The notes beneath the pieces were generated by a model. It was not told the DNA's origin. It did no database searches and worked only from the letters and a program-made list of their open reading frames with translations. Position numbers and translations under genes: made by a program. Positions 3,694 through 48,377 of a stretch of 64,000 nt of DNA are shown piece by piece (the first letter of the stretch is position 1; the number at the start of each line of letters is the position of its first letter). The DNA is taken from NCBI GenBank assembly GCA_964484655.1, contig CAZAFA010000001.1:31242-95241 (forward strand). Direction: 5' to 3'. The DNA comes from an uncultured Candidatus Saccharibacteria bacterium (lineage in GTDB: Bacteria; Patescibacteriota; Minisyncoccia; UBA6257; 2-01-FULL-56-20).

Positions 3694-4008
3694 ATGGCTG
3701 AAAACAGCTTCCGCGTTCGCGTGATAGACGAACGCAACCTGCCGACGGTGGTCGGCGAAACTGGCACGGTGGACCTCCATCTGGAGCACACCGATGCCGA
3801 CGGCAAGTGGGCGAACGTGAGGATGCGCGTCCGCGTCACGAAGACCGACGGATCGCGCTCGAAAGCCGAGTTCGACGGAGCGATCCTCGTCTCGCGCGGC
3901 GCGTTCCACGAACGGCACCCGTTCGGAAAGTTCCGGCTTCGGCGCGGGGACCATCCCTTCTTCCTGCGCCATCAACTGCATTCTCAGAAGGTCTTCATGA
4001 CCATCTGA
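3694..4008 (+). CDS. Hypothetical small protein (104 aa)
   Basis: Strong promoter plus AGGAGA RBS 8 nt upstream of the ATG. No recognisable family. GC is slightly lower than the neighbours. Confidence 0.5.
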   Translation: MAENSFRVRVIDERNLPTVVGETGTVDLHLEHTDADGKWANVRMRVRVTKTDGSRSKAEFDGAILVSRGAFHERHPFGKFRLRRGDHPFFLRHQLHSQKVFMTI

Positions 4009-4045
4009 CCAATTCCCAGAGCCCCCGCACCCGCGGGGGCTCGCT

Positions 4046-5482
4046 TCATCTCAGGTCGTAGACCTGGGCGTCCGGCGGCACGCCGTCGGTGCTGGTCGCA
4101 TAGAAGACGCGCTCGCGCTGCTGCGCTTCCCGCGTCGCGGTTCCCGTGACGAACATCACGGTCTGCGCCGCTACCGGCATGCCGCCGATGCGCACGTCGC
4201 CGTCGGGGACGATCACGTACGCGTCGCGAGCTCGGTCCCGCTGCAGCAGCGCCCGTCCGGCCTCGAGGTAGCTCGTCGTGAACTCGTCGCGGACCTCGGG
4301 CTTCGCGGCATACGCCGGATACCGCACCGCGGTGCTCGCGAGCGCGCCGCCGCAGACTAGTACCGCAAGCGCGATTCCCGCCCGCGGCCAGCGCCGAGCC
4401 GCGCGGTCCAGCGCGAACGCCGAAAGCAGCATCACCGGCACGACGAGGAGTATCCCGCGCAGCGCGTGCGGCATACCCTCGTTGCTGAGCACGGCGGGGA
4501 GCGCGCCCGCGACCAGGAGCGCCCCGACGATCGCCGCGTCATGCTTCCGCCGCCACAGGAGCGCGGCTCCGACGAGCGTGCAGGCGAGGACCGGCAGCGC
4601 CACCGCCGGCGCGCCGCTGTCGTTATGGCGCCAGTTGCGATCGCCGTTCCAGGCGAGCATGCCGGCCATCAGCGCGACGTTGCGCGCGATCTCTCGCGCG
4701 GGTCGCTCCGTCTCCCATGCGGCGACCTGGTCCGCGCGCTCCCCGAAGCTTCCCGGATGCGTGGCGAAGTAGTGCGCGAGGGGAGCGGCGGCGATGGCGG
4801 CGCAGACGCCGGCGAGCGCGAGCGCCGCGGCGACGCGCCTCCGCGCATCGCGCGCGCAAGCGATAAGCGCGATGCCGATCGCGGCGAACGCGAGCCCTGC
4901 GGCGCGGAAGGCGATGTACGTATGCAGGCCGACGCCGGCTAGGAATCCTCCCAGCGCAGCGAGCGGCCATCCGTTCGCGCCTTCGCGCACGCGTCGCACG
5001 CCGGCGAGGAGCGCCCAGAGCGCGAAGACGAGCACGAGCGGCGCGAGGATCGCGCGGAACCCGACGCGCGAGAAGACGACGTGCCAGAAGCTTCCCGCGA
5101 GGAGCGCCGCTGCGATCAGGCCGGCGCGCCTGCCCCAGAGCTCGCGCCCGAGCAGGTACATGCCGGGGACGGTCAGGATGCCGGCGAGCGCGGAGACCAG
5201 GCGCAGGACCCACGGCTCGCGGACGCCCGCGACGGCGAGCGCGATGGACTGCAGGTTCGCGTACAGGCCCTCGCGGCCGTTGTTGCCCGGGTAGAACCAG
5301 TCCCACCGGCCTTCGAGCGCCGCGAGGGCGTCGTTGCCCTCGGTAGCCTCGTCGGGATAGAGGCCGGGCGGCAGGTCCGCGAGGCTCGCGAGCCGCAGGG
5401 ATGCCGCGGCGAGGACGATGCCGGCGAGGAGGAGGCGCGTCGGCGTGATCCACGTGGGCAAGCGCATGGGCGAAGTGTACAC
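4046..5482 (-). CDS. Glycosyltransferase family 39 (ArnT/PMT-like, phospholipid-carrier-dependent) membrane protein
   Basis: 478 aa and polytopic. N-terminal LPPGLYPDEATEGNDA region with the conserved DE of the GT-C PMT_2/ArnT family. Confidence 0.65.
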   Translation of the reverse strand: MYTSPMRLPTWITPTRLLLAGIVLAAASLRLASLADLPPGLYPDEATEGNDALAALEGRWDWFYPGNNGREGLYANLQSIALAVAGVREPWVLRLVSALAGILTVPGMYLLGRELWGRRAGLIAAALLAGSFWHVVFSRVGFRAILAPLVLVFALWALLAGVRRVREGANGWPLAALGGFLAGVGLHTYIAFRAAGLAFAAIGIALIACARDARRRVAAALALAGVCAAIAAAPLAHYFATHPGSFGERADQVAAWETERPAREIARNVALMAGMLAWNGDRNWRHNDSGAPAVALPVLACTLVGAALLWRRKHDAAIVGALLVAGALPAVLSNEGMPHALRGILLVVPVMLLSAFALDRAARRWPRAGIALAVLVCGGALASTAVRYPAYAAKPEVRDEFTTSYLEAGRALLQRDRARDAYVIVPDGDVRIGGMPVAAQTVMFVTGTATREAQQRERVFYATSTDGVPPDAQVYDLR

Positions 5483-5489
5483 TTATCGC

Positions 5490-5861
5490 ATGGAGACTCC
5501 CGAGCAGCCGCGCGTCGTCAACTTCAGCGAAGCTGACGTGGCGCGCGTGAAGACGGAGCTCGAGTCGCGGCCGGAGACGCGCGCCGAGGGCGCGCCCGCG
5601 AACCGCGAGGCCGTTCGGCAGGCGCTCGTCGCCGTCCTCCCGCAGCCGGTGCCCGCGACGGCAACCTCGACGCCGTCGCAGGTCGTCGAGACGGCCGGAA
5701 CGCAGCAGCGCGTGGAGGCGCTGGTCCGCCAAGCCGCCGAGCAGGGCATCGACGCGGCGCACGCCCGCGCCGCTGCGGACGAGCCCTACGTGCTCGACGC
5801 GTTCCACGACGCGCTCGCCGGCGCGATGCACGACGAGCTCGCTCGTCGCGGACTGCTCTGA
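5490..5861 (+). CDS. Hypothetical soluble protein translationally coupled to the downstream ATPase
   Basis: 123 aa from M at 5490 (the track ORF starts at 5418). Its stop TGA overlaps the ATG of the next gene (ctgATGc). Ala/Glu-rich with no known domain. Confidence 0.4.
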   Translation: METPEQPRVVNFSEADVARVKTELESRPETRAEGAPANREAVRQALVAVLPQPVPATATSTPSQVVETAGTQQRVEALVRQAAEQGIDAAHARAAADEPYVLDAFHDALAGAMHDELARRGLL

Positions 5862-8221
5862 TGCAGTATCTCGCGTACGGCCTCGTCATCGGCTTCCTCG
5901 CGCTGTGCGGGATCGGCGCGTTCCTCATCCGGCGCACGCTTCGGCACCGCGCCCTCATCGCGTCGCTCAGCTACGCGCTGCTGCTCGTGCGCGTGCCGCG
6001 CGAGGACAGCAAGCAGGGCGAGGACCTGAAGACGCAGACCGCGCGCGCCGAGCAGCTGTTCGCCGGCCTGCTCTCGCTCGGCGTGCCGGTGTCCTACGAG
6101 GTCGCCGTGCCGCACGTCGGCGAGGAGCTCCACTTCTACCTGTCCGTGCCGCGCACGATGATCGACGCGGCGACGCGCCAGGTCCAGGCCCTCTGGCCGT
6201 CCGCCTCCGTATCGCGCGAGGAGGGGGACTACAACATCTTCTCTCCCGGAGGCTCGGTCGCAGCCGCGTACGTCATCGCGAAGGATTCGCATGCGCTGCC
6301 GATCCGCACCTACCTCGAGCTGGGCACGGACACGACCGCGTCCATCCTGGGCGGCTTCGCGAAGCTCGCGAACATCGGCGAAGGAGCTTCCTTCCAGCTC
6401 GTCGTGCGTCCGGCTCCGAAGGACGCGGGGAAGGGGCTGCAGCGGATCCTCTCCGGACTCAAGGAAGGGAAGTCTCTCAAGGACCTGGTGCCGAGCCTGA
6501 GCCGATCGCTCAAGGACCTCGCGGGCTCCGCGGGGGACAGGAAGGAGGCAGGCGCCGCTCCGGGCCGCGTCGACGAAGAGCTCGTCCGCGCGCTCGAGGG
6601 CAAGCTCGCCAAGCCGCTCGCGTGGGCGGAGGTGCGCCTGGTCGCTTCGGCGCCGACGCAGGCCGCCGCGGACCAGATCCTCGAGAGCCTCGCCGCCGGC
6701 TTCGCGCAGTTCTCCGCGCCGCGTCGCAACGAGCTCAAGGTGAGCAGGCCGCGCTCCTGGCGGAGCATCGTGCACGAGTTCAGCTTCCGGGAATTCACGG
6801 GCAACGCGGCGTCGCTCCTCAACGTCGAGGAGCTCGCGAGCCTCTACCACTTCCCGCTGCCGGGCGCGGACCTCGCGCGCGTGAAGTGGCTCAAGTCCCG
6901 CGAGGCGCCGCCTCCGACCGACCTGCCGAAGGAAGGCCTGCTCCTCGGCGAGAGCGTGTACCGCGGCATGCGCACGCCTGTCTACCTCTCCGACGAGGAC
7001 CGCCGGCGCCACATCTACGTGATCGGACAGACCGGCACCGGTAAGTCGACGCTGCTGGGCAACCTCATCCTCGACGACATCAAGCGGGGAGCGGGCATCG
7101 CGGTCCTCGACCCGCACGGCGACCTCGTGGAGACGGCACTCGCGCATATCCCGCGGAACCGCATCGACGACGTCATCTACTTCGATCCGGGCGACCTCAT
7201 GCTCCCGATGGGGCTCAACATGCTCGAGTACAACCTCGCCAACCCCGAGGAGAAGACGTTCATCGTCAACGAGGTGCAGGGCATCTTCAACAAGCTCTTC
7301 CCGCCGGAGACGATGGGCCCGATGTTCGAGCAGTACATGAGGAACGCGCTCCTGCTGCTCATGGAGGACGCCGCCAACGAGCCGGCGACGCTCGTCGAGG
7401 TGCCGCGCATCTTCACGGACGCGGAATGGCGCAAGCGCAAGCTCGCGCGCATCGCTAACCCCGTGGTCCGCGACTTCTGGGAACAGGAGGCCTCGAAGGC
7501 GGGCGGGGACGCGTCCCTCGCGAACATGACGCCGTACATCACCTCGAAGTTCAGCAACTTCATCGCCAACGACTACGTGCGCCCCATCATCGGCCAGCCG
7601 CGCAGCAGCCTGAACTTCCGCGACGTCATGGACAGCGGGAAGATCCTCCTCGTGAACCTCGCGAAGGGGAAGATCGGCGACATCAACGCCAACCTGCTCG
7701 GCATGATCATCATGGGCCGCATCTCCATGTCCGCCTTCGCGCGCGCGGGTACGGCCAAGGAGTCGCGTCGCGACTTCCACGTCTACATCGACGAGTTCCA
7801 GAACTTCACGACCGACTCGATCTCCACGATCTTCTCCGAGGCCCGCAAGTACCGCCTGACCCTGACCGTGGCGCACCAGTTCATCGCGCAGCTGAGCGAC
7901 AAGATCCGCGACTCGGTCTTCGGGAACGTCGGCAACCAGCTCGCCATGCGCGTGGGTCCCGCCGACGCCGAGTTCCTCGTGAAGCAGTTCGAGCCCACCT
8001 TCACCGCCGCGGACCTGATCAACATCGACAACCTGAACGCGTACGCGAGCATCATGGTGAACGGGCAGACCACGACCGCGTTCAATCTCGAGGTGGGCCA
8101 CCAGTCCTGGGAGAAGGGCGATCCGGACTACACCGCGAAGCTGCGCGAGTACGCGCGCATCAAGCTCGGCACGCCGCGGCATCAGGTGGAGGCGGATATC
8201 ACAAGGCGTCTGCGGAACTAG
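5861..8221 (+). CDS. Membrane-anchored P-loop ATPase, type IV coupling protein-like (VirD4/TraD/TrwB family)
   Basis: 786 aa with one N-terminal TM. Walker A VIGQTGTGKST is followed by DPHGD, which resembles the DPKGE of TraD/TrwB. Walker B HVYIDEFQNF and an AHQ sensor are present. Confidence 0.55.
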   Translation: MQYLAYGLVIGFLALCGIGAFLIRRTLRHRALIASLSYALLLVRVPREDSKQGEDLKTQTARAEQLFAGLLSLGVPVSYEVAVPHVGEELHFYLSVPRTMIDAATRQVQALWPSASVSREEGDYNIFSPGGSVAAAYVIAKDSHALPIRTYLELGTDTTASILGGFAKLANIGEGASFQLVVRPAPKDAGKGLQRILSGLKEGKSLKDLVPSLSRSLKDLAGSAGDRKEAGAAPGRVDEELVRALEGKLAKPLAWAEVRLVASAPTQAAADQILESLAAGFAQFSAPRRNELKVSRPRSWRSIVHEFSFREFTGNAASLLNVEELASLYHFPLPGADLARVKWLKSREAPPPTDLPKEGLLLGESVYRGMRTPVYLSDEDRRRHIYVIGQTGTGKSTLLGNLILDDIKRGAGIAVLDPHGDLVETALAHIPRNRIDDVIYFDPGDLMLPMGLNMLEYNLANPEEKTFIVNEVQGIFNKLFPPETMGPMFEQYMRNALLLLMEDAANEPATLVEVPRIFTDAEWRKRKLARIANPVVRDFWEQEASKAGGDASLANMTPYITSKFSNFIANDYVRPIIGQPRSSLNFRDVMDSGKILLVNLAKGKIGDINANLLGMIIMGRISMSAFARAGTAKESRRDFHVYIDEFQNFTTDSISTIFSEARKYRLTLTVAHQFIAQLSDKIRDSVFGNVGNQLAMRVGPADAEFLVKQFEPTFTAADLINIDNLNAYASIMVNGQTTTAFNLEVGHQSWEKGDPDYTAKLREYARIKLGTPRHQVEADITRRLRN

Positions 8222-8280
8222 GTTTTTATAGAAATTTCATATCCTGTCCCCTAGGCTTGCCTCAGCTTGGAGGTGAAAAA

Positions 8281-8808
8281 ATGAATATTCGTATCGAAGA
8301 TGTACGCCATGAGCTTAGCGAGGTGTACCTTTTCTTAAATGAGCACGCGCAACAGGCACGCCAGTGCTTGCCGCCGCCGATGCTAGAAATCTTCGCTATC
8401 TGTGAAGATGACGGTGAAATAGTCGCTTGCTGCGGCGCTTCCGTAGCGAGCAAAGGAAGACTCCATATCGAGAAGATTTACCGTCTTGATGTTGAGACGG
8501 CACAATTTCTCGACAAGGAGCGCCAGAGGTTCTGCGAGATCGGGCGCTGGTTCTCGGTCGTTCCTGATGCAGCGACAGCAACCCTGAAGGCTCTGGTTAT
8601 GCATCTCGAGAAACAAGGAGTTGCGTTCGCTCTCTGCGAGCTCAAGGATGCAACGGTTCGCCGGGCAAAGCGCATGGGGCTCGCCTTTCATCAAACGGCT
8701 TCAACCTTAAATCTTGAGGCGATTGACGCAACGGAGATAGCTTACTACCAAGACGATCATCCGCCGAAGCTATACTGGCTGAATTTCGCTGAGATCCAGT
8801 GGAAGTAA
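8281..8808 (+). CDS. Hypothetical protein on a low-GC island, possible GNAT-fold acyltransferase
   Basis: 175 aa. GC ~50% against ~68% flanking. RBS ggaggtg 7 nt upstream. The C-terminal LKDATVRRAKRMGLAF resembles the GNAT motif (A/V)xxx(Y/A)xkxGF. No confident family assignment. Confidence 0.5.
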   Translation: MNIRIEDVRHELSEVYLFLNEHAQQARQCLPPPMLEIFAICEDDGEIVACCGASVASKGRLHIEKIYRLDVETAQFLDKERQRFCEIGRWFSVVPDAATATLKALVMHLEKQGVAFALCELKDATVRRAKRMGLAFHQTASTLNLEAIDATEIAYYQDDHPPKLYWLNFAEIQWK

Positions 8809-8842
8809 AAAAAGAAACCGAGGAGATCTCGGTTTCTTTTTA
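8809..8842. terminator. Bidirectional rho-independent terminator
   Basis: aaaaa-gaaaccgag-gagat-ctcggtttc-ttttt. A perfect 9-bp stem flanked by an A-tract and a T-tract, serving the convergent genes on both sides. Confidence 0.65.
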
Positions 8843-10041
8843 TAAACTCACGAACCGCTTCCGTAGGATGCGCCAGGCGTCCAGCGGCGAGAGCATGCTC
8901 AATAGATACCGTGCCTCGGCGAGGATGGAGAGTAGCTGCGCGAGTCGTCCTCGGCAGCGCACGCCCAGGTACTGGGCGACGCCTCCCCTGGTACCCAGCG
9001 GGACCACGAACACCGGCCAGCCAGGATGGAACGGCCGCTCCTTCTTCCCGGCGATGCGCCGCAGGATGTTGTCCGCGACGCGGTCCGCCTGGTCGAGCGC
9101 CATATGCGCGGTCCAGGGAAGCGGCTTGCCCTTGTAATGGAAGGACGCGGCGTCGCCGATCGCATACACGTGCGGCTCGACGCCGCCCTCCTGCGGCACG
9201 CACGTCAGAGGCGCATCCGCCGCGAGCCGTCCCTTCTCCTGCACGTAGGGGAGCGTGCTCAGGATCGCCGGCGGCTGGATGCCGCCGGTCCAGACGAGCA
9301 CGTCGTGCGGCAGCGCGGCGCCGTCCGCGAGCGTCACCGCATCCTTGTCCGCGCCGGTTATGGCGACGCCGGTGCGCACCTGCACGCCTCTGCGCGCGAG
9401 CTCTTCGGCGGCGTAGGTCCGGACGTGCTCCGGGTAATTGCCGAGAATGGAAGGCGAAGCTTCCACGAGGGTGACGTGAACGCCTGCCTGCCAGGCGCCG
9501 ATGCGCTCGGCGAGCATCGCCGCGAGCTCGACGCCGGTCGGACCGGCGCCGCCTATCGTCACGCGCAGCGGCTTGTCCCGTCCGCGCATGAGCGTCGCGA
9601 GCGTGCGGTTGATGCGGTCCGCGTCAGCGAGCGTCTTGAGCGTGACGGCGTGCTCCTTGAGGCCGGGGATGCCGTAATACGCAGGCTCGCTCCCGAGCGC
9701 GATCACGAGCGTGTCGTAGCCGACCTGCCGTCCGTCCGCGAGCCCCACGGTCCTTGCCTCGGCGTCGATCGACGCGACCTCGGCCTGCATGAACGAGATC
9801 GGGAGGCCGGCGATGAGGCGCCGGATGGAGAGGGCGAAGGCGCGGTCCATAACGCGACGCCGCGCCGCGTCGGTGACGGCGCCCGCGAGGAGGTAGAAGC
9901 CGGGCGTGTAGCCGTGCATGCCGTCGCGGTTGATCAGCGTCACCGCGAGGTGCCGCCGCTTCGCGTCCCGCGCGAGGTTCCGCGCGGCGCGGATCCCGGC
10001 GAATCCGCCGCCGACGATGACCACGCGATGCGGGGAGCTCA
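8840..10041 (-). CDS. ndh: Type II NADH dehydrogenase (NDH-2), FAD-dependent pyridine nucleotide-disulfide oxidoreductase
   Basis: VVIVGGGFAGIRAA dinucleotide-binding motif, a second GAGPTGVELAAML Rossmann motif, and AIGDAA near the C-terminus. The start was chosen at MSSPH; the track ORF extends to 10087. Confidence 0.7.
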
Positions 10042-10086
10042 TGCGCACATTGTACCGGGGGTCCCCGATGAGTAAACTCGAGGGCA

Positions 10087-12255
10087 ATGCTCAAGCCTCT
10101 CGCCGACGCCTCCGACCGCGCCCTCTCCGGCATCGCGCTCGTGCGCATCGACGTCAACGCGGCTGACGACTGGCGCCTCGAGGCGGTCGTGCCTACGATT
10201 CGCCATCTCGCGGAGCGCGCGCGGAAGGTGATCGTGATCAGCCACAAGGGACGTCCGTCGCCGGGACAGCGCCTCGGCCCGCTGAGCCTCTGGAGCGACG
10301 CGCAGAAGCTGCAGGAGCATCTGGAGCAGGACGTCTGGTTCGTCTCCGACACGAGCATTCCCGCGGTGCGCAAGGAGCTCGCCACGATTCCCGACGGCAC
10401 CGTGACGGTCCTCGAGAACATCCGCGCCTTCAAGGGCGAATCCTCGGACGCGGAGAGCTTCGCGGCCGCGCTCGCCTCGCTCGGGGACTACTACGTCTCC
10501 GACGCGTTCCCGGTCTTGCATCACCCGGCGGCTTCCGTGACCGGCCTGCCGCGCCTCCTGCCGAGCTACGCCGGCTTCCAGCTCACCGAGGAGCTCGAGC
10601 GGCTCGGCAAGCTCTCCAACCGCGTGCGCCGGCCGTACGTGGTGGTAATCGGCGGCGCGAAGGCGGGGGACAAGCTCGGCGTCCTCGAGGAGGTGATCGG
10701 GCGCGCGGACAAGGTGCTCGTCGGCGGCGCGTGCGCGAACGCGCTGCTCGCGCTCTCGGGCGTCGACGTCGGGAACTCCGTCTACGAGCGCGACCCGAAG
10801 CTGCTCGCCGCGCTCAAGCCGTACGTGGGGCATAAGAAGATCATCCTGCCGACGGACTACGTCAGGAGCGGCGGCCGGATCCTCGACATCGGCCCGAAGA
10901 CGGCGCGCGCCTTCGCGCGCGAGGTGGGCAAGGCGGGGACCGTGCTCTGGACGGGCCCGCTCGGCCTCATCGAGCAGAAGCGCTTCGCGAAGGGCACGCT
11001 CGCCGCGGCCGTCGCGGCGGCGCGCAACCGCAAGGCGTTCACGGTCACCGGCGGCGGCGAGACGGTCACGTTCCTCAAGCAGCACGGCCTCGACCGGAAG
11101 TTCTCCTTCATCTCGACCGGCGGCGGCGCGATGATCGACTTCGTCGCGGGGAAGAAGCTGCCCGGCCTCGAGGCGCTCGCCGGACGCAAGGCGCCCGCCC
11201 CGCGGAAGAAGGCGGCCACGACGAAGGAGCGCGTCGCCCAGGTCATCGCGCCGAAGATGCCGAAGCTCGCGCCGACCTATGACATCTTCTTCCACGACGA
11301 CTTCGACGGCCGCGCCTCGGCCGCGGTCTTCATGGACTTCCTGTCGTCGCGCAAGAGCAAGGTGGGCCGCCTGATCCCGGTGGAGCACGACCTTGCCGAC
11401 GTCTGGCTCAAGCGCGACGCGCTCAATCGCATCGCCGGCAGCAAGCGGATCAACCCGGCCGTAGTCGTGGATTTCCCGTACCACCCGCAGGCCGCCTTCT
11501 GGTATGACCATCATCCGGGCGCCATCCGCCTGCCGGAGTGGGAGGCGCGCTTCCAGCCGTCCGTGTTCCGCCGGCTCGACACGGACTACGCGTCGGCCTG
11601 CCATCTCGTCCTGGACATGCTCGTCGAGGGATTCGGGTACGCGCCGCCGCGCCGCATCAAGGAGCTCGCGCGCTGGGCGGACATCGTCGACAGCGCCCGC
11701 TGGACCAACCCGTATCAGACCTTCGCGCTTCGGGAGCCTGGCATGCAGGTGAGCTCCTTCATCAGCGACGAGGCTGCCGCCGCCGCGCGCCGCGGCGAGC
11801 GCACGGACGCGCTTCCCTGGCTCATCGAGCTCATGGCCAAGCACGGCGTCGAGCGCGCCTCGCGCGACAAGCGCGTGCAGGCGGCCGTCGCGCGCATCCG
11901 CGAGGAGAGCAAGCAGTCGCTCGCGTTCTACCGCCGCAACCTGGAGGAGCGGGGGATCGTCGCGGTCATCGACACGTCGGGCCTGCCGACGCGCAAGCTG
12001 CGGTACGCGCCGTACTACCTGTCTCCCGCAGCGATCTACGCGCTCGCCCTGTCCGAGCGCAAGGACGGCTCGTACGTCATCCAGGCAGGCGTCAGCCCCT
12101 GGAAACGGGAGCGCAACGCCTTCGACATCGGCGGCGTGCTCCGGCAGTTCGGGGGCGGCGGCCATCCCTTCGCGGGCGCCGTGCGGCTCGCCACCCGAGC
12201 CGAAGCCGACCGCGTCGTCGACTACCTCGTCTCGCTGTTCAATGGCACCAGCTAG
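10087..12255 (+). CDS. pgk: Fusion protein: phosphoglycerate kinase (N-terminal) plus DHH/DHHA1 phosphoesterase (NrnA-like, C-terminal)
   Basis: Residues 1-~372 form a complete PGK, ending with the PGK C-terminus FISTGGGAMIDFVAGKKLPGLEAL. A basic linker follows. The C-terminal ~350 aa carry DHH motifs FHDDFDG, VVVDFPYHP, WYDHHPG and the DHHA1 GGGGHPFAG. There is no stop between the two parts. Confidence 0.75.
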   Translation: MLKPLADASDRALSGIALVRIDVNAADDWRLEAVVPTIRHLAERARKVIVISHKGRPSPGQRLGPLSLWSDAQKLQEHLEQDVWFVSDTSIPAVRKELATIPDGTVTVLENIRAFKGESSDAESFAAALASLGDYYVSDAFPVLHHPAASVTGLPRLLPSYAGFQLTEELERLGKLSNRVRRPYVVVIGGAKAGDKLGVLEEVIGRADKVLVGGACANALLALSGVDVGNSVYERDPKLLAALKPYVGHKKIILPTDYVRSGGRILDIGPKTARAFAREVGKAGTVLWTGPLGLIEQKRFAKGTLAAAVAAARNRKAFTVTGGGETVTFLKQHGLDRKFSFISTGGGAMIDFVAGKKLPGLEALAGRKAPAPRKKAATTKERVAQVIAPKMPKLAPTYDIFFHDDFDGRASAAVFMDFLSSRKSKVGRLIPVEHDLADVWLKRDALNRIAGSKRINPAVVVDFPYHPQAAFWYDHHPGAIRLPEWEARFQPSVFRRLDTDYASACHLVLDMLVEGFGYAPPRRIKELARWADIVDSARWTNPYQTFALREPGMQVSSFISDEAAAAARRGERTDALPWLIELMAKHGVERASRDKRVQAAVARIREESKQSLAFYRRNLEERGIVAVIDTSGLPTRKLRYAPYYLSPAAIYALALSERKDGSYVIQAGVSPWKRERNAFDIGGVLRQFGGGGHPFAGAVRLATRAEADRVVDYLVSLFNGTS

Positions 12256-12676
12256 GCCCCAGCTCACCGACGGCGTCCTCGTCGTCTACACGGACGGGGG
12301 CTCGCGCGGCAACCCCGGCCCTGCCGCCGCCGGCTGGGTGGTCGGCGGGCTGAGCTTCGGAAAGTTCATCGGCGTCACCACGAACAACGACGCCGAGTAC
12401 CAGGCCATCATCAACGGACTGCGGACCGCGAAGGACCTGCTCGGGAAGGCGACGGCGAAGCGTACGCGCGTCGAGGTGCGCATGGACTCCGAGCTCGCCT
12501 GCAAGCAGCTCAATCACGAGTACCGGCTCAACGATCCCCAGATCCAGAGGCACTTCATCGAGATCTGGAACCTCATGCTCGACTTCGCGGAGGTGCGCTT
12601 CGTGCACGTGCGCCGCGAGTTCAACAAGGACGCGGACGCTGCTGCGAACCGGGCCCTGGACGAGGCGGGATACTAG
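12242..12676 (+). CDS. rnhA: Ribonuclease HI
   Basis: YTDGGSRGNPGPAAAGWV, TNNDAEYQAII, MDSELAC and HVRREFNKDADAAAN are the catalytic DEDD-region signatures of RNase H1. Confidence 0.8.
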   Translation: MAPARPQLTDGVLVVYTDGGSRGNPGPAAAGWVVGGLSFGKFIGVTTNNDAEYQAIINGLRTAKDLLGKATAKRTRVEVRMDSELACKQLNHEYRLNDPQIQRHFIEIWNLMLDFAEVRFVHVRREFNKDADAAANRALDEAGY

Positions 12677-12695
12677 GACCTGGTACACTTATCCC

Positions 12696-13223
12696 ATGCA
12701 CAAGACCGCCAAGATACTCATCGCCGTCCTGGCGCTCGTCCTCATCGCCTTCGTCGCGTATCGCGCGACGAAGAGCCGGACGGTCGTCGGGACGCCGTCG
12801 CCTGACAAGGTGACCTGGACGAGCTTCGCCGACCCGCAGGAGCGCTACGCGCTCGACCAGCCGCAGGGCTTCGACCCGCTGCCGAGCGTGGACGGGTCCA
12901 AGATGTCGTTCCGCAACGCGGCGCTGACCCGCGAGGGCCAACCCGCCACGGTCTCGGTCGAGCTCATGGACAATCCCGACGACCTCGACCTCCAGTCCTG
13001 GTTCGACCAGCAGATTCGCGACGGCATCCTGCCCGCCTACAGCACGTCGACGAAGATCACCCGCGACGGGCGCCTCGGCGGCAAGGAGGTCATCACGGTG
13101 CGCCCCGCCGTGGGATCGTCCTCGTACTTCTTCGTAGCCGGACCCAAGAAAATCGCGGTCATGCACGAGATCCTCGCCGAGGCGTACATGGACCGCTTCA
13201 TCCGCAGCTTCTCGCTGAAGTAG
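12696..13223 (+). CDS. Hypothetical membrane-anchored/secreted protein
   Basis: 175 aa with an N-terminal TM/signal anchor. No known domain. Confidence 0.4.
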   Translation: MHKTAKILIAVLALVLIAFVAYRATKSRTVVGTPSPDKVTWTSFADPQERYALDQPQGFDPLPSVDGSKMSFRNAALTREGQPATVSVELMDNPDDLDLQSWFDQQIRDGILPAYSTSTKITRDGRLGGKEVITVRPAVGSSSYFFVAGPKKIAVMHEILAEAYMDRFIRSFSLK

Positions 13224-15017
13224 CTAGTCGAGGCGGTACAGGAAGATGCTCGTGCCGGCGCGGGCGTCCGGCTCCGGGACGGTGCCGTGCGCCGCGCCGC
13301 GCAGCGCCTGGAGCCACCGGTACTCGTCGATGGTCAGGCGCGGCTCGAGGTTCGCGAGGCCCTGGGTCGCCGTGAGGAGGTAGCTGCTGGATACCGCGAG
13401 CCAGCGGATGCCGTATTCCGCGGGATTGCCGCGCGCTGACCACCAGGCGATCGCGCGCGGGCCGAGCAATGCTTGCGGATCGCTGCCGCCGAACAAGTCC
13501 ACCGCTATGAGCCCTTCTTCAGGGTGCTCGTCCATCCAGCGGCGGAGGCGCAGCGCGTCCTGCCCCCAGTCGTAGTTGCTGTCCGCGGCGACCAGGTAGC
13601 CGTGCGCGGTCCCGCCCGCGAGCGGGTTGTAGTACGCGAGCGGGTAGGGTAGGGACAGGATGCCGACCGCGCCATGCAGCGCGAGCGCGCCCGCGAGCGC
13701 GTAGCCGAAGCGGCGGTCGCGCCGCGCCGCCTCGCGCCAGCCGGCGAGCGCGACGAGGTAGCCTGCCAGGATGACCGGGAAGAGATGGCGGATGCCGATG
13801 TTCAGCGAGCTCCGGAAGGTCATCGCGAGGTAGAGGGCCGCGAAGACGGCGAGCACGAGCTCGGGACTGACGCGCCGGCCGATCGCCGCCTCCCCGCCGC
13901 GCTGCCGCTCGCGGCGGTACAGCCAGAGGCCGGCTATCAGGATGGCGAGCGCGGGGAGCGTCTCCTTCGCGGCGTAGACTACCGGGAAGTAGAGGCGCGA
14001 GCCCGCCGCGCTCACGCTGCCGAGGAAGTAGGCGGTGTTTCCGCCCGCGGACCGCTGCGCGACCATGAGGACGCCGAGGAGGTACGTCCCGGCGGGCTGC
14101 GTGAGCTTGCTGCCCGAGAGCGCGATGGCGAGATCGGCCGCGTAGCGCTGCGGCGGGCGCACCAGGCGGTCCGTCGGCCCGCCGGCGAAGGAGCTCAGCA
14201 GGAACGCCGCGTCGCGGCGGCTGATCTCCGGTTCGCCGCGCAGCGTCAGCGCGAGGTAGGCGGGATATACCACGAGCGAGTACGCGGCCACGATGACGAC
14301 CGCCGTCTGCTTGAGGAGGAGGCGCGCATGCGGCCACGAGCGCGCGCCGCGGTACCCATGCAGCGCCGCTACCGCGAGGAAGGCCGGCACGAGGAGCACG
14401 AGCGAGAACTTCGCGAGCTCGGCGACGCCGAGCGCGACGACGGCGAGCGCGCCGCTCCGGAGGCCCGGCCGGTTCAGGAACGCGGCGAAGGCGGCGCAGG
14501 CGAGCGCTCCCGCTCCCGCGGCCGCGACGTCGGTGGTGACCAGGTGCGCGTGGCCGAGGAAGAACGGCGAGAGCGCGACGAGCGCGACGAGCGCGACGCC
14601 CCAGGCCTCGCCCCAGCGCCGCGCGACGGCGCGCCAGCCGATCAGCAGCAGGCCGAGGTTGAGGAGGGCCACGCCGAGGCGGCCGAGCGCGAGCAGGGCG
14701 CCCGCGTCGCGGTCGCCGCCCCAGAGCACCGCGTCGCCTGCGCGCCACTGCTCGTTGATGCCGCCGTCCCACCACGGCGCGTCGGTCGGGAGGCGCGGCT
14801 GGACGACCTGCGCGAATGCGCCCGCGAAGACCTTGATCAGCGGGGGATGCTCCGGATTGAGCCGGTACGCCAGCTGCTGCACGTACCCGATGCCGGCAGC
14901 CAGGTGCGGCGTCTCGTCGACCGCAGGCGCGTCCGCGAAGAGGGCGTAGCCGCTCCAGAGCGCCGTGATGAGGACCAGCAGCGCGCCGAGCGCGCGGTAT
15001 CGGACGGCGGGGGACAC
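13224..15017 (-). CDS. Glycosyltransferase family 39 (ArnT/PMT-like) membrane protein, second copy
   Basis: 597 aa and polytopic. DETPHLAAGIGY and NPEHPPLIK motifs typical of GT-C mannosyl/arabinosyl transferases. Confidence 0.6.
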   Translation of the reverse strand: MSPAVRYRALGALLVLITALWSGYALFADAPAVDETPHLAAGIGYVQQLAYRLNPEHPPLIKVFAGAFAQVVQPRLPTDAPWWDGGINEQWRAGDAVLWGGDRDAGALLALGRLGVALLNLGLLLIGWRAVARRWGEAWGVALVALVALSPFFLGHAHLVTTDVAAAGAGALACAAFAAFLNRPGLRSGALAVVALGVAELAKFSLVLLVPAFLAVAALHGYRGARSWPHARLLLKQTAVVIVAAYSLVVYPAYLALTLRGEPEISRRDAAFLLSSFAGGPTDRLVRPPQRYAADLAIALSGSKLTQPAGTYLLGVLMVAQRSAGGNTAYFLGSVSAAGSRLYFPVVYAAKETLPALAILIAGLWLYRRERQRGGEAAIGRRVSPELVLAVFAALYLAMTFRSSLNIGIRHLFPVILAGYLVALAGWREAARRDRRFGYALAGALALHGAVGILSLPYPLAYYNPLAGGTAHGYLVAADSNYDWGQDALRLRRWMDEHPEEGLIAVDLFGGSDPQALLGPRAIAWWSARGNPAEYGIRWLAVSSSYLLTATQGLANLEPRLTIDEYRWLQALRGAAHGTVPEPDARAGTSIFLYRLD

Positions 15018-15059
15018 GGCGTCAGTCTACTGCATTGAGGAGGGCGGTCGAGTACGGCT

Positions 15060-16856
15060 ATGATGCAGCCGATGCGCGACATCGTCCCATACGCCGACGC
15101 CGATCCCACGCCGGACCGTCCCCCGCGGCCGCCGGTCCCGCGCGAGCCGCGGCGGAAGCTCCGTGCCGCCCTCCTCGCGTCCTTCCTCGGCCTTGCGCTC
15201 CTGGTCGCGAGCGTCGGGTCCATCGTCGTGGCGTTCGGCCGGATGGCCGACGCGACGCCGCTCTCGTTCCCGCTCGCATCCGTCCTCGAGACTATCTCGA
15301 GCGCGTACCGCCGCATAGCCGGATTTGCCGGCAGCAGCGTGGCGCTCGTACGGCTCGGCAACGAGGCCCTCGCCCTCGCCCCGGACCTCCTCAAGGGGAA
15401 GCGCGGCGACGAATTGATTGCACTCCTCGGCCGCGCGCAGGACGAGCTCGCCGCGCTCGGCAGCACGGGCCTCGTGCCCGAGCTCGGCGCCAAGGGGAGC
15501 GACCTGGCGACGGCGGCGGGCGCGTTCCGCGAATGGCTCGACAGCGCGGAGGAGCGCCGCGTCGCCGTGGTCTTCGGCAACTCCGCCGAGATGCGCGCCG
15601 GCGGCGGCTTCATCGGCAGCTACGCCGAGGTCACGCTGCGCCGCGGCGCCGTCGCGGGGATCGTCGTGCGCGACATCAACGACGCCGACAGCGGGAGCGG
15701 CGACCGCACGATCCCGCCACCGCAGCTCGAGCCCGTCGCCGCGCGCTGGCGAGCCGCCGACGCCAACTGGTTCCTCTCCGGGCCCGCGTCCGGCGCCGCG
15801 TTCCTGAACCTGCTCAACCGCTCGCCGCTCTATAAGGACAAGCCGGTCGACGCGGCTTTCTTCGTCGCGCCGCGCGTGGTCTCCGACTTCCTCGCGCTCA
15901 CCGGCCCGATCGAGGCGGGCGGCGTGACCGTCGACAAGGACAACTTCCTCCGCGTCATCCAGAACGAGGTCCAGGAGGGGCAGGCGTCCGGCGCGGAATC
16001 GCCCAAGGCCGTGCTCACCGCGCTCGTGCCGGCCTTCACCGACGCCCTCCTCTCGCAGGCGCGGAGCCAGCCGCTCGCCGTCGTCGAGACGCTCCGGAAC
16101 GGCGTCGCGCGGCGCGACATCGTCGCGTACGCAGACGACGCCGCCGTGGAGCGCGCGCTGGACCTGCTCGGCATGAGCGGCAGCCTCTACCCGACCGGGG
16201 ACCGCTTCGTCGGCGGCTACGTCGCCGTCGCCCCGAGCACGATCGGCGGGGACAAGACGGACGCCGTCACGGGCCAGGAGGTCCGCGTCAGGCAGCAGCT
16301 CTTCCCGAAGGGTCTCGTCGAGACCACCGTCGAGGTGGAGCGCGCCCATCGCGGCGCCGACGACGACCCGTGGTGGTACCGCGAGGAGCACCGCAGCTAC
16401 GTGAAGGTCTACGCGCCGCAGGATTCCACGCCGCTCGCCGCGACCGGCATCTGGCTGCGCGACCGCGCGCTCGCGACGTACGACGGCACGTTCTCCGCCT
16501 ACGAGCCGCTCGCGACGGTCCTGTCCACGCGGGCGTACTTCCCGGACGTGCCCGGCGTCGAGTCGTACCGCGAGGCGGACAAGACGGTGTTCGGCTTCTG
16601 GCAGCGCACGGCGCGCGGCGCCTCGACCGTGGCGCGCCTCTCCTACGCGACCCAGCTGCCGCGCGAGCTCCGGGACGGCGACGCGTATGCCTTCGTCCTC
16701 GAGCGCCAGCCGGCGAGCACCTCCTCGTACCGGGTCGACGTGTACGCGCCGCCCGGATTCCGCTTCGCCGAGAGCGGGACCGCGCGGTACCAGTGGTCCA
16801 GCGAAGATCCCGCGGGCCGCACCGTGACGGCGCTCACCCTGCAGGCCGCCCCGTGA
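15060..16856 (+). CDS. Hypothetical membrane-anchored extracellular protein (DUF4012-like)
   Basis: 598 aa with a Pro-rich N-terminus and one TM. The GGFIGSYAEV motif is remembered from DUF4012 family proteins. Low certainty on the family. Confidence 0.4.
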   Translation: MMQPMRDIVPYADADPTPDRPPRPPVPREPRRKLRAALLASFLGLALLVASVGSIVVAFGRMADATPLSFPLASVLETISSAYRRIAGFAGSSVALVRLGNEALALAPDLLKGKRGDELIALLGRAQDELAALGSTGLVPELGAKGSDLATAAGAFREWLDSAEERRVAVVFGNSAEMRAGGGFIGSYAEVTLRRGAVAGIVVRDINDADSGSGDRTIPPPQLEPVAARWRAADANWFLSGPASGAAFLNLLNRSPLYKDKPVDAAFFVAPRVVSDFLALTGPIEAGGVTVDKDNFLRVIQNEVQEGQASGAESPKAVLTALVPAFTDALLSQARSQPLAVVETLRNGVARRDIVAYADDAAVERALDLLGMSGSLYPTGDRFVGGYVAVAPSTIGGDKTDAVTGQEVRVRQQLFPKGLVETTVEVERAHRGADDDPWWYREEHRSYVKVYAPQDSTPLAATGIWLRDRALATYDGTFSAYEPLATVLSTRAYFPDVPGVESYREADKTVFGFWQRTARGASTVARLSYATQLPRELRDGDAYAFVLERQPASTSSYRVDVYAPPGFRFAESGTARYQWSSEDPAGRTVTALTLQAAP

Positions 16857-23900: not shown

Positions 23901-23972
23901 TTGCGGGGACAGGAGTCGAACCTGCTACCTTGAGCTTATGGGGCTCACATGCAACCGTTACACTTCCCCGCG
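23901..23972 (-). tRNA. Initiator tRNA-fMet (anticodon CAT)
   Basis: 5' cgcgggg and 3' ccccgca-a give the C1:A72 mismatch diagnostic of bacterial initiator tRNA. Anticodon loop ccCATaa. No encoded CCA. The D-arm is atypical. Confidence 0.65.
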
Positions 23973-34518: not shown

Positions 34519-34552
34519 AAAGGACCCCGCTTGGTGCGGGGTCCTTTCGTTA
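34519..34552 (+). terminator. Rho-independent terminator
   Basis: aaaggaccccgc-ttgg-tgcggggtcctttcgtt. Confidence 0.5.
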
Positions 34553-34911
34553 GGCGGCGTCCTGGTAAGCGGGATTCTGTCGCGCGAGCGCGGGCAGCAA
34601 TCTGTCTGGGATCATCGTCGCCGATGACCTCAAGCGGCACTCCGGCTTGCGCCGGCACGGCCTTGCACCCGGTAAGGATTTAGCCGTTTCACCCCGGCGG
34701 TCTCCCGCCGGACTGTCCCCGAGGGGACCCGGAGGCATTTCTGCTCCGGCGTCTCTGTTCGCACCTCTCGCGTTGCCGCGGCGGGCCGTTAGCCCGTACC
34801 TTTTTGACTCGATGAAGAGTGGGTGTCCCGACTTTCCTCTGGAGCGGAACTCCAGCTGCTGCCTCGGACGCCGCGCTGGCAGTCTGTCAGCTTTGGCTCG
34901 CGATGCAAGGC

Positions 34912-45714: not shown

Positions 45715-47311
<1,597 letters not shown>

Positions 47312-48371: not shown

Positions 48372-48377
48372 CATCCC

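Follow-up and report, generated by a model that had tools for sequence, protein, structure and literature searches.

A phosphoglycerate kinase fused to a probable PggH/NrnB-like phosphodiesterase in a small clade of Patescibacteria

Why would a glycolytic kinase and a DHH/DHHA1 phosphoesterase be encoded as a single polypeptide? The question is raised by one open reading frame (ORF) in the window analyzed here, by which we mean the whole 64-kb stretch of DNA. A sequence-only reading had described a 722-aa ORF in which a complete phosphoglycerate kinase (PGK) runs in frame, through a basic linker, into a complete DHH/DHHA1 phosphoesterase, and the ORF is found exactly where that reading had placed it, with an ATG start (Table 1). 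The same reading knew of no described PGK-DHH fusion, and our literature search agrees: no paper in the collection searched contained both “phosphoglycerate kinase” and “DHHA1,” and nothing relevant to a PGK-DHH link was returned, the matches to “DHH” being mostly to yeast Dhh1. Is the fusion real? If so, how did it arise, and do its two halves have any business with each other?

Table 1. Features of the fusion locus and its flanking genes (window coordinates)
Feature	Coordinates	Strand	Basis and remarks
Pyr_redox_2 flavoprotein gene, divergent upstream neighbor	8840..10087	-	Pfam E=1e-45
Sigma-70-like promoter match for the Pyr_redox_2 gene	10076-10049	-	Promoter scan
Fusion ORF	10087..12255	+	ATG start, 722 codons + TAG stop
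PGK domain, residues 1-364	10087..11178	+	PF00162; full-length alignment to 1vpe and 1php; ends ...GKKLPGLEAL
Altered 3-PG basic-patch motif DAFPVLHHPAAS	10501..10536	+	H146 (10522-10524) in place of the arginine equivalent to pig/human R170
Basic linker, Ala/Pro/Lys/Arg-rich, residues 365-397	11179..11277	+	pI 11.8; GC3 0.97-1.0, coding-like
Internal in-frame ATG, Met391	11257..11259	+	Not a conserved start
DHH/DHHA1 phosphodiesterase domain, residues 398-722	11278..12252	+	Motifs, AF2, Foldseek, family profile
DHH motif I, H403/D405/D407 (FHDDFDG)	11290-11310	+	
DHH motif II, D462	11470-11472	+	
DHH motif III, D474-H475-H476 (DHH)	11506-11514	+	
DHH motif IV, D535	11689-11691	+	
GGGH, residues 690-693	12154-12165	+	
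RNase H-like gene, 144 aa	12242..12676	+	RVT_3 E=5e-16, RNase_H E=6e-10 (Pfam); start overlaps fusion ORF end by 14 nt

Authenticity of the fusion and identity of its halves

At a genome GC content of 67%, and with a 742-aa ORF on the antisense strand over the same span, an open frame alone is weak evidence, and the decisive evidence is comparative. A search with the full-length protein across NCBI, JGI, ENA, and Logan assemblies returned 13 distinct fused proteins of 717 to 739 aa, each covering 100% of the query at 59 to 100% identity; the search of related genomes that the sequence-only reading had proposed as a check thus finds the same fusion in independent assemblies. NCBI (on a 235,560-bp contig) and Logan (SRR11845633) both contain the identical protein, and the Logan contig, an independent assembly, is 100% identical to window positions 5087-15292 over 10.2 kb. 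One fused genome (L084) has a GC content of only 53%, which indicates that the open fused frame does not depend on high GC. The idea that a stop codon or frameshift was missed in this metagenome-assembled genome draws on the rarity of stop codons at 67% GC and on the antisense ORF, and it is refuted for practical purposes by the identical Logan sequence, by 12 other fused orthologues from other samples and assemblers, and by the linker's in-frame GC3 of 0.97 to 1.0. No GC dip was seen at the PGK-DHH junction. Comparison at the sequence level confirms that the ORF is a genuine fusion and not an artifact, and the in-frame joining of a complete PGK to a complete DHH/DHHA1 unit is borne out.

The fused relatives surfaced by way of a genome scan (L054), an exhaustive search of representatives (P0122), and the full-length query (all 13 fusions). 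A first search with the DHH half had returned only standalone proteins of 308 to 333 aa at no more than 44% identity, as if the fusion were unique to the window; that word-index search had missed the fused relatives. Candidates were also set aside. The tblastn HSP that suggested a fusion at L006 ran through a stop codon (LK*PRGT...), leaving that locus one in-frame stop codon short of fusion, and the long matches P0123 and P0126 are PGK-PGK tandem duplications.

The N-terminal half is a full PGK, as had been claimed. PF00162 matches residues 24-356 (E=2e-91), with 307 bits where the cut-off is 27 and with 18-379 of the 379 model positions covered; the alignment with Thermotoga maritima PGK (1vpe) runs from one end of the half to the other, and 46 solved PGKs match at E<=1e-20. 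The motifs of the nucleotide/Mg site (GGAKxxDK, which includes the D218 equivalent, GPxGxxE, and GGG[D/E]T) are present as IGGAKAGDKLGV, TGPLGLIE, and TGGGETV, invariant in the 13 fusions; the Asp-to-Glu change in GGGET is also common to unfused CPR PGKs. In the pig and human enzymes, R65, R122, and R170 of the basic patch bind the 3-phosphate together with H62, D23, N25, and R38, and R170, in contact with that phosphate, also forms a closure salt bridge that helps lock the closed state (PMC7729029). In the window, six of these seven residues are kept (R56, R113, H53, D22, N24, and R30), and the R170 equivalent is His146. This position is His in 13/13 fused proteins versus Arg in 52/52 unfused relatives, and it is one of 12 differences between fused and unfused PGKs at 80 conserved columns. 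Given that the substitution (R170H) hits a residue that binds the 3-phosphate and helps lock closure, the activity of the PGK half may be altered or low. Yeast R168K/M mutants reportedly keep Vmax with a raised Km. The substitution was absent from the sequence-only reading, and the PGK half is not fully canonical.

The C-terminal half is harder to place. Its four DHH motifs and its GGGH motif are all in the sequence where they had been reported, and their residues are invariant in 21 homologues as well as in the 13 fusions. Pfam scores fall below the gathering thresholds (DHHA1, PF02272, 18.4 to 19.1 bits against 25.9; DHH, PF01368, 14.4 against 28.1), most homologues have no precomputed Pfam match, the family being too divergent for the Pfam models, and an NCBIfam scan of the full fusion protein matched only the PGK/TIM model NF010569. 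With Pfam below threshold, the DHH/DHHA1 identity rests on motif conservation, an AF2 model, Foldseek matches, and a profile match to PggH. The AF2 model of this half (pLDDT 95.2, pTM 0.90) predicts a two-lobe DHH plus DHHA1 fold. Foldseek returned 75 PDB matches at E<=0.001, the top 50 of them all DHH/DHHA1 proteins, including PggH, DhhP, NrnA, and GdpP; the best was PggH (7d62, E=3.7e-16, TM 0.73/0.82), and all others had TM <=0.58. Searched against the PDB, the family profile matched PggH only (E=1.6e-16). NrnA was not matched by the profile at E<=0.001, and phmmer aligned it at E=0.11 over only 35 residues around GGGH. Thus, of the earlier label “NrnA-like,” the DHH/DHHA1 phosphoesterase part stands and the reference to NrnA is imprecise. 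At JGI, several standalone homologues carry the label “oligoribonuclease NrnB/cAMP/cGMP phosphodiesterase” (COG2404), and we place this half, with the same confidence as the overall reading given below, as a probable member of the PggH/NrnB-like (COG2404) branch and a predicted two-lobed, metal-dependent phosphodiesterase.

How far can the comparison with characterized relatives be taken? PggH (VCA0593) of Vibrio cholerae, which is specific for pGpG, shares with the DHH half a length of about 320 aa, the DHH motif, the motif IV Asp, the GGGH His, and lobes joined by long helices (here predicted at residues 577-618 of the full-length AF2 model); mutagenesis found its Mn2+ ligands and GGGH histidine essential for activity (PMC8861645), and these essential residues are conserved in the DHH half. 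In contrast, identity to PggH is only 16 to 18%, the Mn ligand Asn55 of PggH is Asp here (VVVDF), the guanine-contacting Arg146 aligns with a nonconserved position, and PggH is a standalone protein tied to c-di-GMP signaling, whereas the present family is associated with pgk and RNase H genes. On these alignments, the substrate specificity of PggH cannot be transferred to the DHH half. The nanoRNases NrnA and NrnB belong to the same superfamily and share the two-lobe architecture and the catalytic motifs; NrnA differs in its marginal sequence match and in a TM of 0.52 to 0.57. NrnB proteins (COG2404, with DHH, GGGH, and a helical inter-lobe linker) fall into clades distinguished by their helical linker, and a basic extension is what permits activity on long RNA (PMC12709177), a feature that recalls the basic tether seen here. 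Unlike the present family, the characterized NrnB clades come from Bacillota and Campylobacterota, and none is fused or linked to pgk.

Gene order and the origin of the fusion

Among 67 assessable Patescibacteria loci, 53 (~80%) have pgk on the same strand and no more than 900 nt upstream of the DHH gene. In 13 of these 53 the stop and start codons overlap, in 18 the gap is 0 to 30 nt, and 3 are fused. In 32 related loci the DHH gene is followed by an RNase H homologue, and this gene is the third member of a conserved block; its overlap with the end of the fusion recurs in two other fused loci (L084 and L092), and in L085 an ORF that begins with GTG (3747..4181) likewise overlaps by 14 nt. The Pyr_redox_2 gene is upstream of the fusion in all four fused loci whose upstream region was examined (L054, L084, L085, and L092). 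The pgk-DHH adjacency persists down to a DHH identity of 27 to 30%. Outside the CPR, no pgk was found beside the DHH homologues, and the distant homologues there (in Acidobacteria and others) have no recurring neighbors and offer no functional clue. Given that pgk immediately precedes the DHH gene in most unfused Patescibacteria, often with overlapping codons, the fusion made permanent a long-standing operon whose genes were translationally coupled. Genes that stay adjacent in very small, compact genomes can also reflect inherited synteny without a functional link.

The fusions themselves have diverged considerably. Five fused loci were read at the DNA level (the window, L054, L084, L085, and L092). 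A neighbor-joining tree that included four of the fused PGKs places them in one clade, which arises on a long stem from among the unfused PGKs. The linkers of the 13 fusions come in ten different lengths, from 27 to 45 aa, all in frame, and all catalytic residues of both halves are invariant except R170. Between the window and its closest orthologue, L092, dN/dS is 0.116 for the PGK half, 0.166 for the DHH half, and 0.59 for the linker at a dS of ~0.5, a comparison restricted to this one pair because, with pS>0.75 in several segments, more distant orthologues are saturated. These values place both halves under purifying selection. We conclude from these comparisons that a small Patescibacteria/CPR clade holds the PGK-DHH fusion as a genuine, evolutionarily fixed state. 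The sequence-only reading had offered, as an alternative to a functional fusion, two genes with a lost stop codon. That describes the evolutionary history well, given that the genes are separate and adjacent in most Patescibacteria, but not the present state, given 13 divergent fused sequences. It had also named an outcome that would count against a fusion, namely, orthologues that are always separate together with an internal promoter and ribosome-binding site at this locus; what we find instead is fused orthologues, no promoter-like or terminator-like site on the plus strand within the ORF in our scan, and no Shine-Dalgarno (SD)-like motif at the junction.

Gene order across these relatives shows an operon-to-fusion origin. 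Most Patescibacteria of the Paceibacteria/Parcubacteria type carry pgk immediately ahead of the DHH gene in the same orientation, the DHH stop codon being overlapped in turn by an RNase H gene. In one subclade, loss of the pgk stop codon merged the two reading frames, after which the start codon of the DHH part decayed, such that the DHH domain would be made only within the fusion.

Possible functions of the fused protein

The reading we favor, with a probability of about 0.72, is that of a fixed bifunctional protein of operon origin, in which a PGK is joined by a disordered basic tether of 27 to 45 aa to a PggH/NrnB-like DHH/DHHA1 phosphodiesterase. We posit that the DHH half hydrolyzes di- or oligoribonucleotides (nanoRNA and possibly pGpG-like dinucleotides) to NMPs, finishing the work of RNase H or other RNases, and that the PGK half still interconverts 1,3-BPG plus ADP and 3-PG plus ATP through a remodeled 3-PG phosphate site. 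Fusion would hard-wire the 1:1 production and co-localization of an already co-translated pair, and the basic tether may hold RNA. The likely logic would be that organisms dependent on salvage thereby link their scavenging of RNA and nucleotides to substrate-level phosphorylation. We infer this functional coupling of RNA salvage to substrate-level phosphorylation, and the broader proposal of the sequence-only reading, a coupling of PGK to nanoRNA, pAp, or c-di-NMP turnover, is a hypothesis.

There are precedents for parts of this arrangement. The PGK-TIM “fus” proteins of T. maritima and Thermotoga neapolitana likewise combine a complete N-terminal PGK with the product of an adjacent operon gene that is made within the fusion, and they illustrate that the fusion partners of PGK need not catalyze consecutive reactions (PMC7729029). 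In contrast, the partner here is a nonglycolytic DHH/DHHA1 phosphodiesterase, the linker is long and basic, and the PGK carries R170H; the PGK-TIM model NF010569 scores 282 bits against its 883-bit cut-off, matches only the PGK part, and finds no TIM barrel. Enolase occurs in the RNase E degradosome of Escherichia coli, and enolase and PFK associate with RNase Y in Bacillus subtilis. In those assemblies, too, a glycolytic enzyme is physically joined to RNA-degrading enzymes; they differ in being noncovalent and built on endoribonucleases, whereas the present protein, known from sequence, would be a covalent union of PGK with a phosphodiesterase of the terminal step.

Do the two enzymes act together at all? 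The loss of a stop codon between co-translated housekeeping genes may simply have been tolerated, leaving a real fusion of enzymes that work independently of each other. This is quite possible, although we would not bet on it. The tight packing of the pair, with overlaps or gaps of <=30 nt in 31 loci, and the near-fusion at L006 suggest that fusion is mechanistically easy; the linker sequence looks unconstrained, with a dN/dS of 0.59 and no conserved residues, and in PGK-TIM a PGK fusion without consecutive chemistry is already known. Against independence, adjacency is kept over greater DHH divergence than drift alone usually permits, the basic composition of the linker is kept in 13/13 fusions (pI 10.2 to 12), and the fused clade is also where a PGK substrate residue that is otherwise invariant has undergone a fixed change.

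At the other extreme, the pgk-DHH-rnhA block, with the fusion as its most extreme form, might constitute a dedicated CPR module, a covalent “mini-degradosome” in which RNA held by the tether would be taken to NMPs by RNase H and the DHH half, while the PGK half, whose 3-PG site R170H would have retuned, would act as a local source or sensor of ATP/ADP or come under the control of nucleotides or oligoRNA. We offer this extension as speculation and think it unlikely to hold in full.

A related thought is that the PGK half has been repurposed as a weakened or “dead” kinase, serving as a nucleotide-sensing or RNA-binding scaffold or a regulatory module, with a canonical PGK encoded elsewhere. The split at R170 (13/13 against 52/52), the 12 differences at conserved columns, and the long stem branch are what such a change might leave behind, R170 being the residue that contacts the 3-phosphate and forms the closure salt bridge (PMC7729029). 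Kinetoplastid PGK-like proteins offer a parallel: they too carry an extra fused domain, some have substitutions at substrate residues, and several are predicted to be catalytically dead (PMC7729029); they differ in being eukaryotic and in having regulatory partners, whereas here only R170 is changed and selection is strong. The other substrate and nucleotide residues (D22/N24, R30, H53, R56, R113, GGAKxxDK, and GGGET) are invariant, a dN/dS of 0.116 is what an active enzyme typically shows, a His residue remains capable of binding phosphate, and no second pgk was found within the 64-kb window. We regard repurposing as improbable.

Could two proteins still be made, either because translation also starts at Met391 or because the linker is cut by a protease? 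The basic linker is present where it had been described; across the 13 orthologues, linkers share no sequence conservation, with pI values of 10.2 to 12.0, and in the full-length AF2 model the linker has pLDDT <50, which predicts a disordered, exposed segment. That model (alignment A4) has a pTM of 0.52 and a PGK half backed by only 2 sequences, and it thus says nothing about domain packing or contacts. The internal methionine proposed earlier (MPKLAPTY, at ~11254) exists in frame, with its codon at 11257-11259 (residue 391); the suggestion that it might be a start with its own ribosome-binding site fares less well. Met391 precedes by 7 codons the point at which DHH homology sets in and standalone homologues begin, the window and P0268 keep a linker Met, and the L084 linker has an in-frame GTG. 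Yet the 12 other fused proteins have a non-Met residue in the Met391 column, and 11/13 linkers have no Met at all. In two of the five loci read at the DNA level, L054 and L085, the junction has no in-frame ATG, GTG, or TTG, which implies that the DHH half there can be made only as part of the fusion. No SD-like motif occurs within 20 nt upstream of Met391 (the only AAGGAG is 27 nt upstream), and no promoter-like site is present, arguments that are weak alone because other genes in the window also lack a clear SD. Altogether, the production of two proteins seems decidedly doubtful. Posttranslational cleavage may still occur in the exposed linker.

Finally, is the DHH half a nuclease? The DHH superfamily includes pyrophosphatases and exopolyphosphatases, and one may ask whether this half acts on 1,3-BPG, 2,3-BPG, 3-PG, or PPi/polyP, making the fusion a two-step metabolic module. 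A persistent link to pgk, and not to RNA metabolism genes alone, and a PGK 3-PG site that changed together with the fusion would fit such a role. It is very unlikely, given that the C-terminal lobe is predicted to be DHHA1 with an invariant GGGH nucleotide-binding motif and not the DHHA2 lobe of PPases, that the best fold matches are all nucleotide or oligonucleotide phosphodiesterases, and that the gene is coupled just as tightly to RNase H.

Implications for Patescibacteria

Most biosynthetic pathways are missing in Patescibacteria, which are believed to subsist on nucleic acids that they scavenge. The preferred reading of the locus, a bifunctional PGK-phosphodiesterase, offers a concrete and testable hypothesis of a physical link between glycolysis and RNA turnover in such organisms. 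The locus brings to light a divergent DHH/DHHA1 family that is missed by Pfam and is unnamed or called “hypothetical protein” in its sources, together with an association in gene order with pgk and RNase H that is kept across many sampled Patescibacteria species genomes. It adds a new domain architecture for PGK beyond PGK-TIM: a “Rosetta-stone” fusion, fixed in 13 lineages and under purifying selection, in which the PGK no longer has a substrate-binding arginine found in 52/52 unfused relatives examined. If the two enzymes are only neutrally tethered, the locus would still be a clean case of an operon becoming a fusion, followed by decay of the internal start codon. If the mini-degradosome is real, a glycolytic enzyme would be integral to nucleotide recycling in salvage-dependent, ultra-small bacteria.

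Two enzymes in one reading frame

Both the ORF listing and the raw sequence give 10087..12255(+) as a single ORF of 722 codons with an ATG start, as the sequence-only reading had it, and this ORF encodes one polypeptide in which a basic, disordered tether connects a phosphoglycerate kinase (PGK) to a DHH/DHHA1 phosphodiesterase. The N-terminal PGK is indeed full length: Pfam places the domain at residues 24-356 (E=2e-91), and phmmer aligns residues 25-368 along the entire PGKs of T. maritima and G. stearothermophilus. Given that the window has a GC content of 67% and that an antisense ORF of 742 aa, 10039-12267(-), covers the whole fusion gene, the length of an open frame is not evidence by itself, and a comparative case is needed. 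The antisense ORF matches no family, and the scarcity of stop codons at 67% GC is its best explanation.

In Pfam, the C-terminal half scores below threshold for both DHHA1 (18-19 bits; cut-off, 25.9) and DHH (14.4 bits; cut-off, 28.1). Despite these scores, the DHH motifs picked out from the sequence are present: numbered within window:11254-12252, residues H14/D16/D18, D73, H86/H87, D146, and G302-G303-H304 are invariant in an alignment with 20 standalone homologues, and D85 is nearly so. An AF2 model of this half, built on a 21-sequence alignment, reached a pLDDT of 95.2 and a pTM of 0.90. Foldseek against the PDB ranked first PggH, the pGpG-specific phosphodiesterase of Vibrio cholerae (7d62; E=3.7e-16, TM 0.73/0.82), followed by DhhP, an archaeal pAp phosphatase, TM1595, GdpP, NrnA, and RecJ-type proteins at TM scores of at most 0.58. 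In PggH, Mn2+ is bound by D15, N55, H68, H69, and D121, and activity is abolished by mutation of H68, D121, D13, D67, or His282 of the GGGH motif (PMC8861645). The equivalents here (D407, D462, H475, H476, D535, D405, D474, and H693) are all invariant, with the difference that the ligand N55 of PggH is an Asp, D462, in the fusion. Several standalone homologues are labelled by JGI as [quoted passage not shown] that is, COG2404; the NrnB family is defined by DHH, GGGH, and a variable helical linker, and a basic extension lets NrnB act on long RNA (PMC12709177). Based on the fold, profile, and motif matches to PggH together with the JGI labels, the C-terminal half is a complete DHH/DHHA1 phosphodiesterase of a PggH/NrnB-like branch, which probably acts on nucleotides or oligonucleotides. 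Thus, the earlier description of a complete DHH/DHHA1 phosphoesterase stands, but the epithet "NrnA-like" is imprecise: NrnA matches this half only at E=0.11 (phmmer), and PggH is the sole match of the family profile in the whole PDB (E=1.6e-16).

Fused relatives and the older gene pair

The identical 722-aa protein is recorded on a 235,560-bp NCBI contig and in the Logan assembly of SRR11845633, whose contig matches the window over 10,206 bp at 100% identity. A word-index search with the DHH half returned standalone proteins only (308-333 aa, at most 44% identity), implying a fusion confined to the window. That picture was incomplete, as other searches found fused relatives; the DHH-half search had missed all 12 other fused proteins (53-86% identical over the DHH half), which a full-length query found, and a negative outcome of a word-index search is not readable as absence. 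A scan of GTDB species genomes yielded a 718-aa fused ORF (PGK, 75% identity; DHH, 53%) at locus L054 (JALHNY010000002.1, Ca. Paceibacterota); the top match of an exhaustive search through 1.84 billion representatives was the 729-aa protein P0122 (full-length identity, 67%), encoded on contig L084; and a DNA pattern coding for the clade-specific peptide YYVSDAFPVLHH matched JGI metagenomes just once, at L085, a 698-kb contig with a 735-aa fused ORF. Two other long matches of the representative search, the database proteins P0123 and P0126 (~796 aa each, from outside the window), proved to be two complete PGK domains in tandem.

The full-length word-index search brought together 13 distinct fused proteins, 717-739 aa long, at 59-100% identity and 100% query coverage, from NCBI, JGI, ENA, and Logan, whose database entries carry PF00162 only and no name. 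The closest orthologue, P0268 on contig L092, is 86% identical. When all 13 are aligned, the domains are collinear, and no catalytic motif varies. Because L084 has a GC content of 53%, its open fused frame is independent of high-GC stop scarcity. Between the window and L092, the closest pair (dS about 0.45-0.57), dN/dS is 0.116 in PGK, 0.166 in DHH, and 0.59 in the linker; purifying selection thus acts on both enzymes in their fused form. A neighbor-joining tree of PGK domains, covering the four fused sequences then available, placed these in one clade that sits on a long stem within the unfused PGKs, which indicates that the fusion arose once. The search among related genomes thus bears out a true in-frame fusion, and an assembly or sequencing artefact is excluded for practical purposes.

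Where the genes are separate, they are commonly neighbors. In the relative P0002 (L002 and L003), the order is a T4-coupling-protein-like DUF87 ATPase, PGK (375 aa, ending ...LPGIESLKR and a stop), a 188-nt spacer, DHH (320 aa, starting MTYDIYFHNDFDG), and RNase H. In a survey of 72 Patescibacteria loci (Patescibacteria, Paceibacterota, or Parcubacteria by record title), pgk lies directly upstream of the DHH gene on the same strand in 53 of the 67 that were assessable.

Arrangement of pgk and the DHH gene in the surveyed loci
Arrangement	Loci
Fused	3
Overlapping stop/start codons (mostly 4 nt)	13
Gap 0-30 nt	18
Gap 31-100 nt	9
Gap 101-300 nt	3
Gap 301-900 nt	7
Other gene between	6
No pgk within 3-4 kb upstream of DHH gene	8
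Not assessable	5

The adjacency reaches as far as Yanofskybacteria-like genomes with DHH proteins of only 27-30% identity; for homologues in Acidobacteriota, Myxococcota, and other phyla, no pgk neighbor or recurrent context was found. Downstream of the DHH gene, 32 loci have an RNase H homologue, which shares its first 14 nt with the end of the fusion ORF in the window, L084, and L092; the ORF listing for L085 has an equivalent GTG-start ORF in this position. A counterpart of the ATPase upstream of the fusion precedes pgk in about 30 related Patescibacteria loci, making it a member of the same conserved block. Given the widespread adjacency and overlap of the unfused genes, the fusion descends from a conserved, co-translated gene pair and locked in a pgk-DHH(-rnhA) unit that already existed and was translationally coupled. 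At locus L006 (~3985-4013), PGK and DHH lie in the same frame one stop codon apart (...LK, stop, PRGTPPPSAMTYD...), and this genome is a single point mutation short of an independent fusion.

Linker and substrate site

Could the DHH half also be made separately? The sequence-only reading had pointed to an internal Met at ~11254, possibly with its own ribosome binding site or promoter. The codon is at 11257-11259 (residue 391), and its column holds another residue in 12/12 other fused proteins; 11/13 linkers are without any Met. At the DNA level, neither L054 nor L085 has an in-frame ATG, GTG, or TTG in its junction, and GTG is the only in-frame start codon in that of L084. On the + strand, no promoter-like or terminator-like site was found in 9700-13300, nor is there a GC dip at the window junction, where linker GC3 (0.97-1.0) is the same as in flanking coding sequence (nearby intergenic spacers, 37-60% GC). 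The sole Shine-Dalgarno-like AAGGAG is 27 nt upstream of the internal ATG, a point of little weight because such motifs are weak at other genes in the window too. The internal start is thus not conserved, and in several fused lineages the DHH half, as read from these junctions, cannot be made separately.

Among the 13 proteins, linker length takes ten values (27-45 aa), none of which breaks the frame; the linkers are all basic (pI 10.2-12.0), with an abundance of Ala, Pro, Lys, and Arg, but share no conserved sequence. Basic tails of 7-20 aa follow ...LPGIxAL in about a dozen of the unfused PGKs (among L004-L082; e.g., L011, L016, L059, L082, and L050); these tails, such as GKQRMRPRTKKRNARSVA and RRESFRRRRILPRRKNMNLSR, each ending in a stop, are unusual for a glycolytic enzyme and are a plausible precursor of the linker. 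The full-length AF2 model has a pTM of 0.52 and a linker pLDDT of <50, and its PGK half rested on two sequences, so that it gives no reading on inter-domain contacts.

All 13 fused PGKs read DAFPVLHH[P/G/A]AAS, versus DAF..HR..AS in other PGKs: the Arg of the HR motif, found in 52/52 unfused relatives, is His in 13/13 fused proteins, of which that of L085 was found via the HH signature and is not independent for this association, the others having been found without it. Aligned with T. maritima PGK (1vpe), the position is R170 of pig and human PGK. R65, R122, and R170 hydrogen-bond the substrate 3-phosphate, and salt bridges of R65 and R170 with D218 stabilize the catalytically closed conformation (PMC7729029). 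The remaining substrate- and nucleotide-site residues are invariant across the fused proteins, and the window and L054 differ at 12/80 PGK columns conserved at ≥90% among unfused PGKs. R170H could have retuned affinity or regulation rather than abolished activity; yeast PGK R168K/M mutants reportedly have a raised Km and keep their Vmax. The low PGK dN/dS speaks against decay of the domain. The 64-kb window holds no second pgk.

Neighborhood and possible function

Other features of the window
Feature	Position	Strand	Remarks
Type IV coupling protein-like ATPase	5861-8221	+	786 aa; HerA/DUF87, T4SS-DNA_transf, TraG-D_C, TrwB matches; N-terminal hydrophobic segment
T_hemolysin (PF12261) ORF	8257-8808	+	TTG start; 183 aa; E=3e-9
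tRNA	23901-23972	-	Rfam call, absent from ARAGORN output
RNase P RNA, bacterial class A	34550-34874	-	107.9 bits (gathering score, 100); 325 nt (367-position model)
16S rRNA gene, complete	45715-47292	+	1578 nt (1533-position model); about 45 extra bases
tRNA-Leu(gag)	48290-48372	+	ARAGORN call, absent from Rfam list

Positions 8200-8900 form a low-GC island (51-55%, versus about 70% in the flanks; spacer 8222-8256, 37%). In L054, the same place is taken by a homologue of the T_hemolysin ORF (41% identity), and in L084 and L092 by a ThiF gene; the island looks like a variable slot between the DUF87 ATPase and Pyr_redox_2 genes, possibly horizontally acquired. The 16S rRNA gene is followed by no 23S match, and the next RNA gene, about 1 kb downstream, is the tRNA-Leu; an rRNA gene that is unlinked and carries an insertion would be CPR-typical, and the RNase P RNA may be of a reduced CPR type.

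PGK fusions are already known (PGK-TIM and the kinetoplastid PGK-like proteins), and both domains here belong to known superfamilies. The sequence-only reading knew of no described PGK-DHH fusion, and our literature search likewise came across neither a PGK-DHH/DHHA1 architecture nor a pgk-nanoRNase linkage; among the papers searched, none joins "phosphoglycerate kinase" with "DHHA1." What is new here is this domain architecture and a previously unnoticed conserved gene association.

We posit that the DHH half would be a Mn2+/Mg2+-dependent di- or oligoribonucleotide (or pAp-type) phosphodiesterase yielding NMPs, working downstream of RNase H and other RNases, and that the PGK half would carry out ADP/ATP-linked phosphoryl transfer. 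The fusion would keep the two enzymes close together at a 1:1 ratio, and its basic tether may bind RNA. That the tether is purely neutral competes seriously with this view and is a distinct possibility, given that, as PGK-TIM in Thermotoga illustrates, the reactions brought together in a PGK fusion need not be consecutive (PMC7729029). That the PGK half has turned scaffold is unlikely, the other substrate- and nucleotide-site residues being invariant and dN/dS low, and a DHH half serving as a metabolite phosphatase is more improbable still. The rationale that we favor, as a hypothesis only, is that salvage-dependent CPR cells tie nucleic-acid scavenging to substrate-level phosphorylation. A nucleic-acid transport role for the upstream ATPase would suit this scavenging theme, and the architecture and the gene association together carry a testable functional hypothesis.
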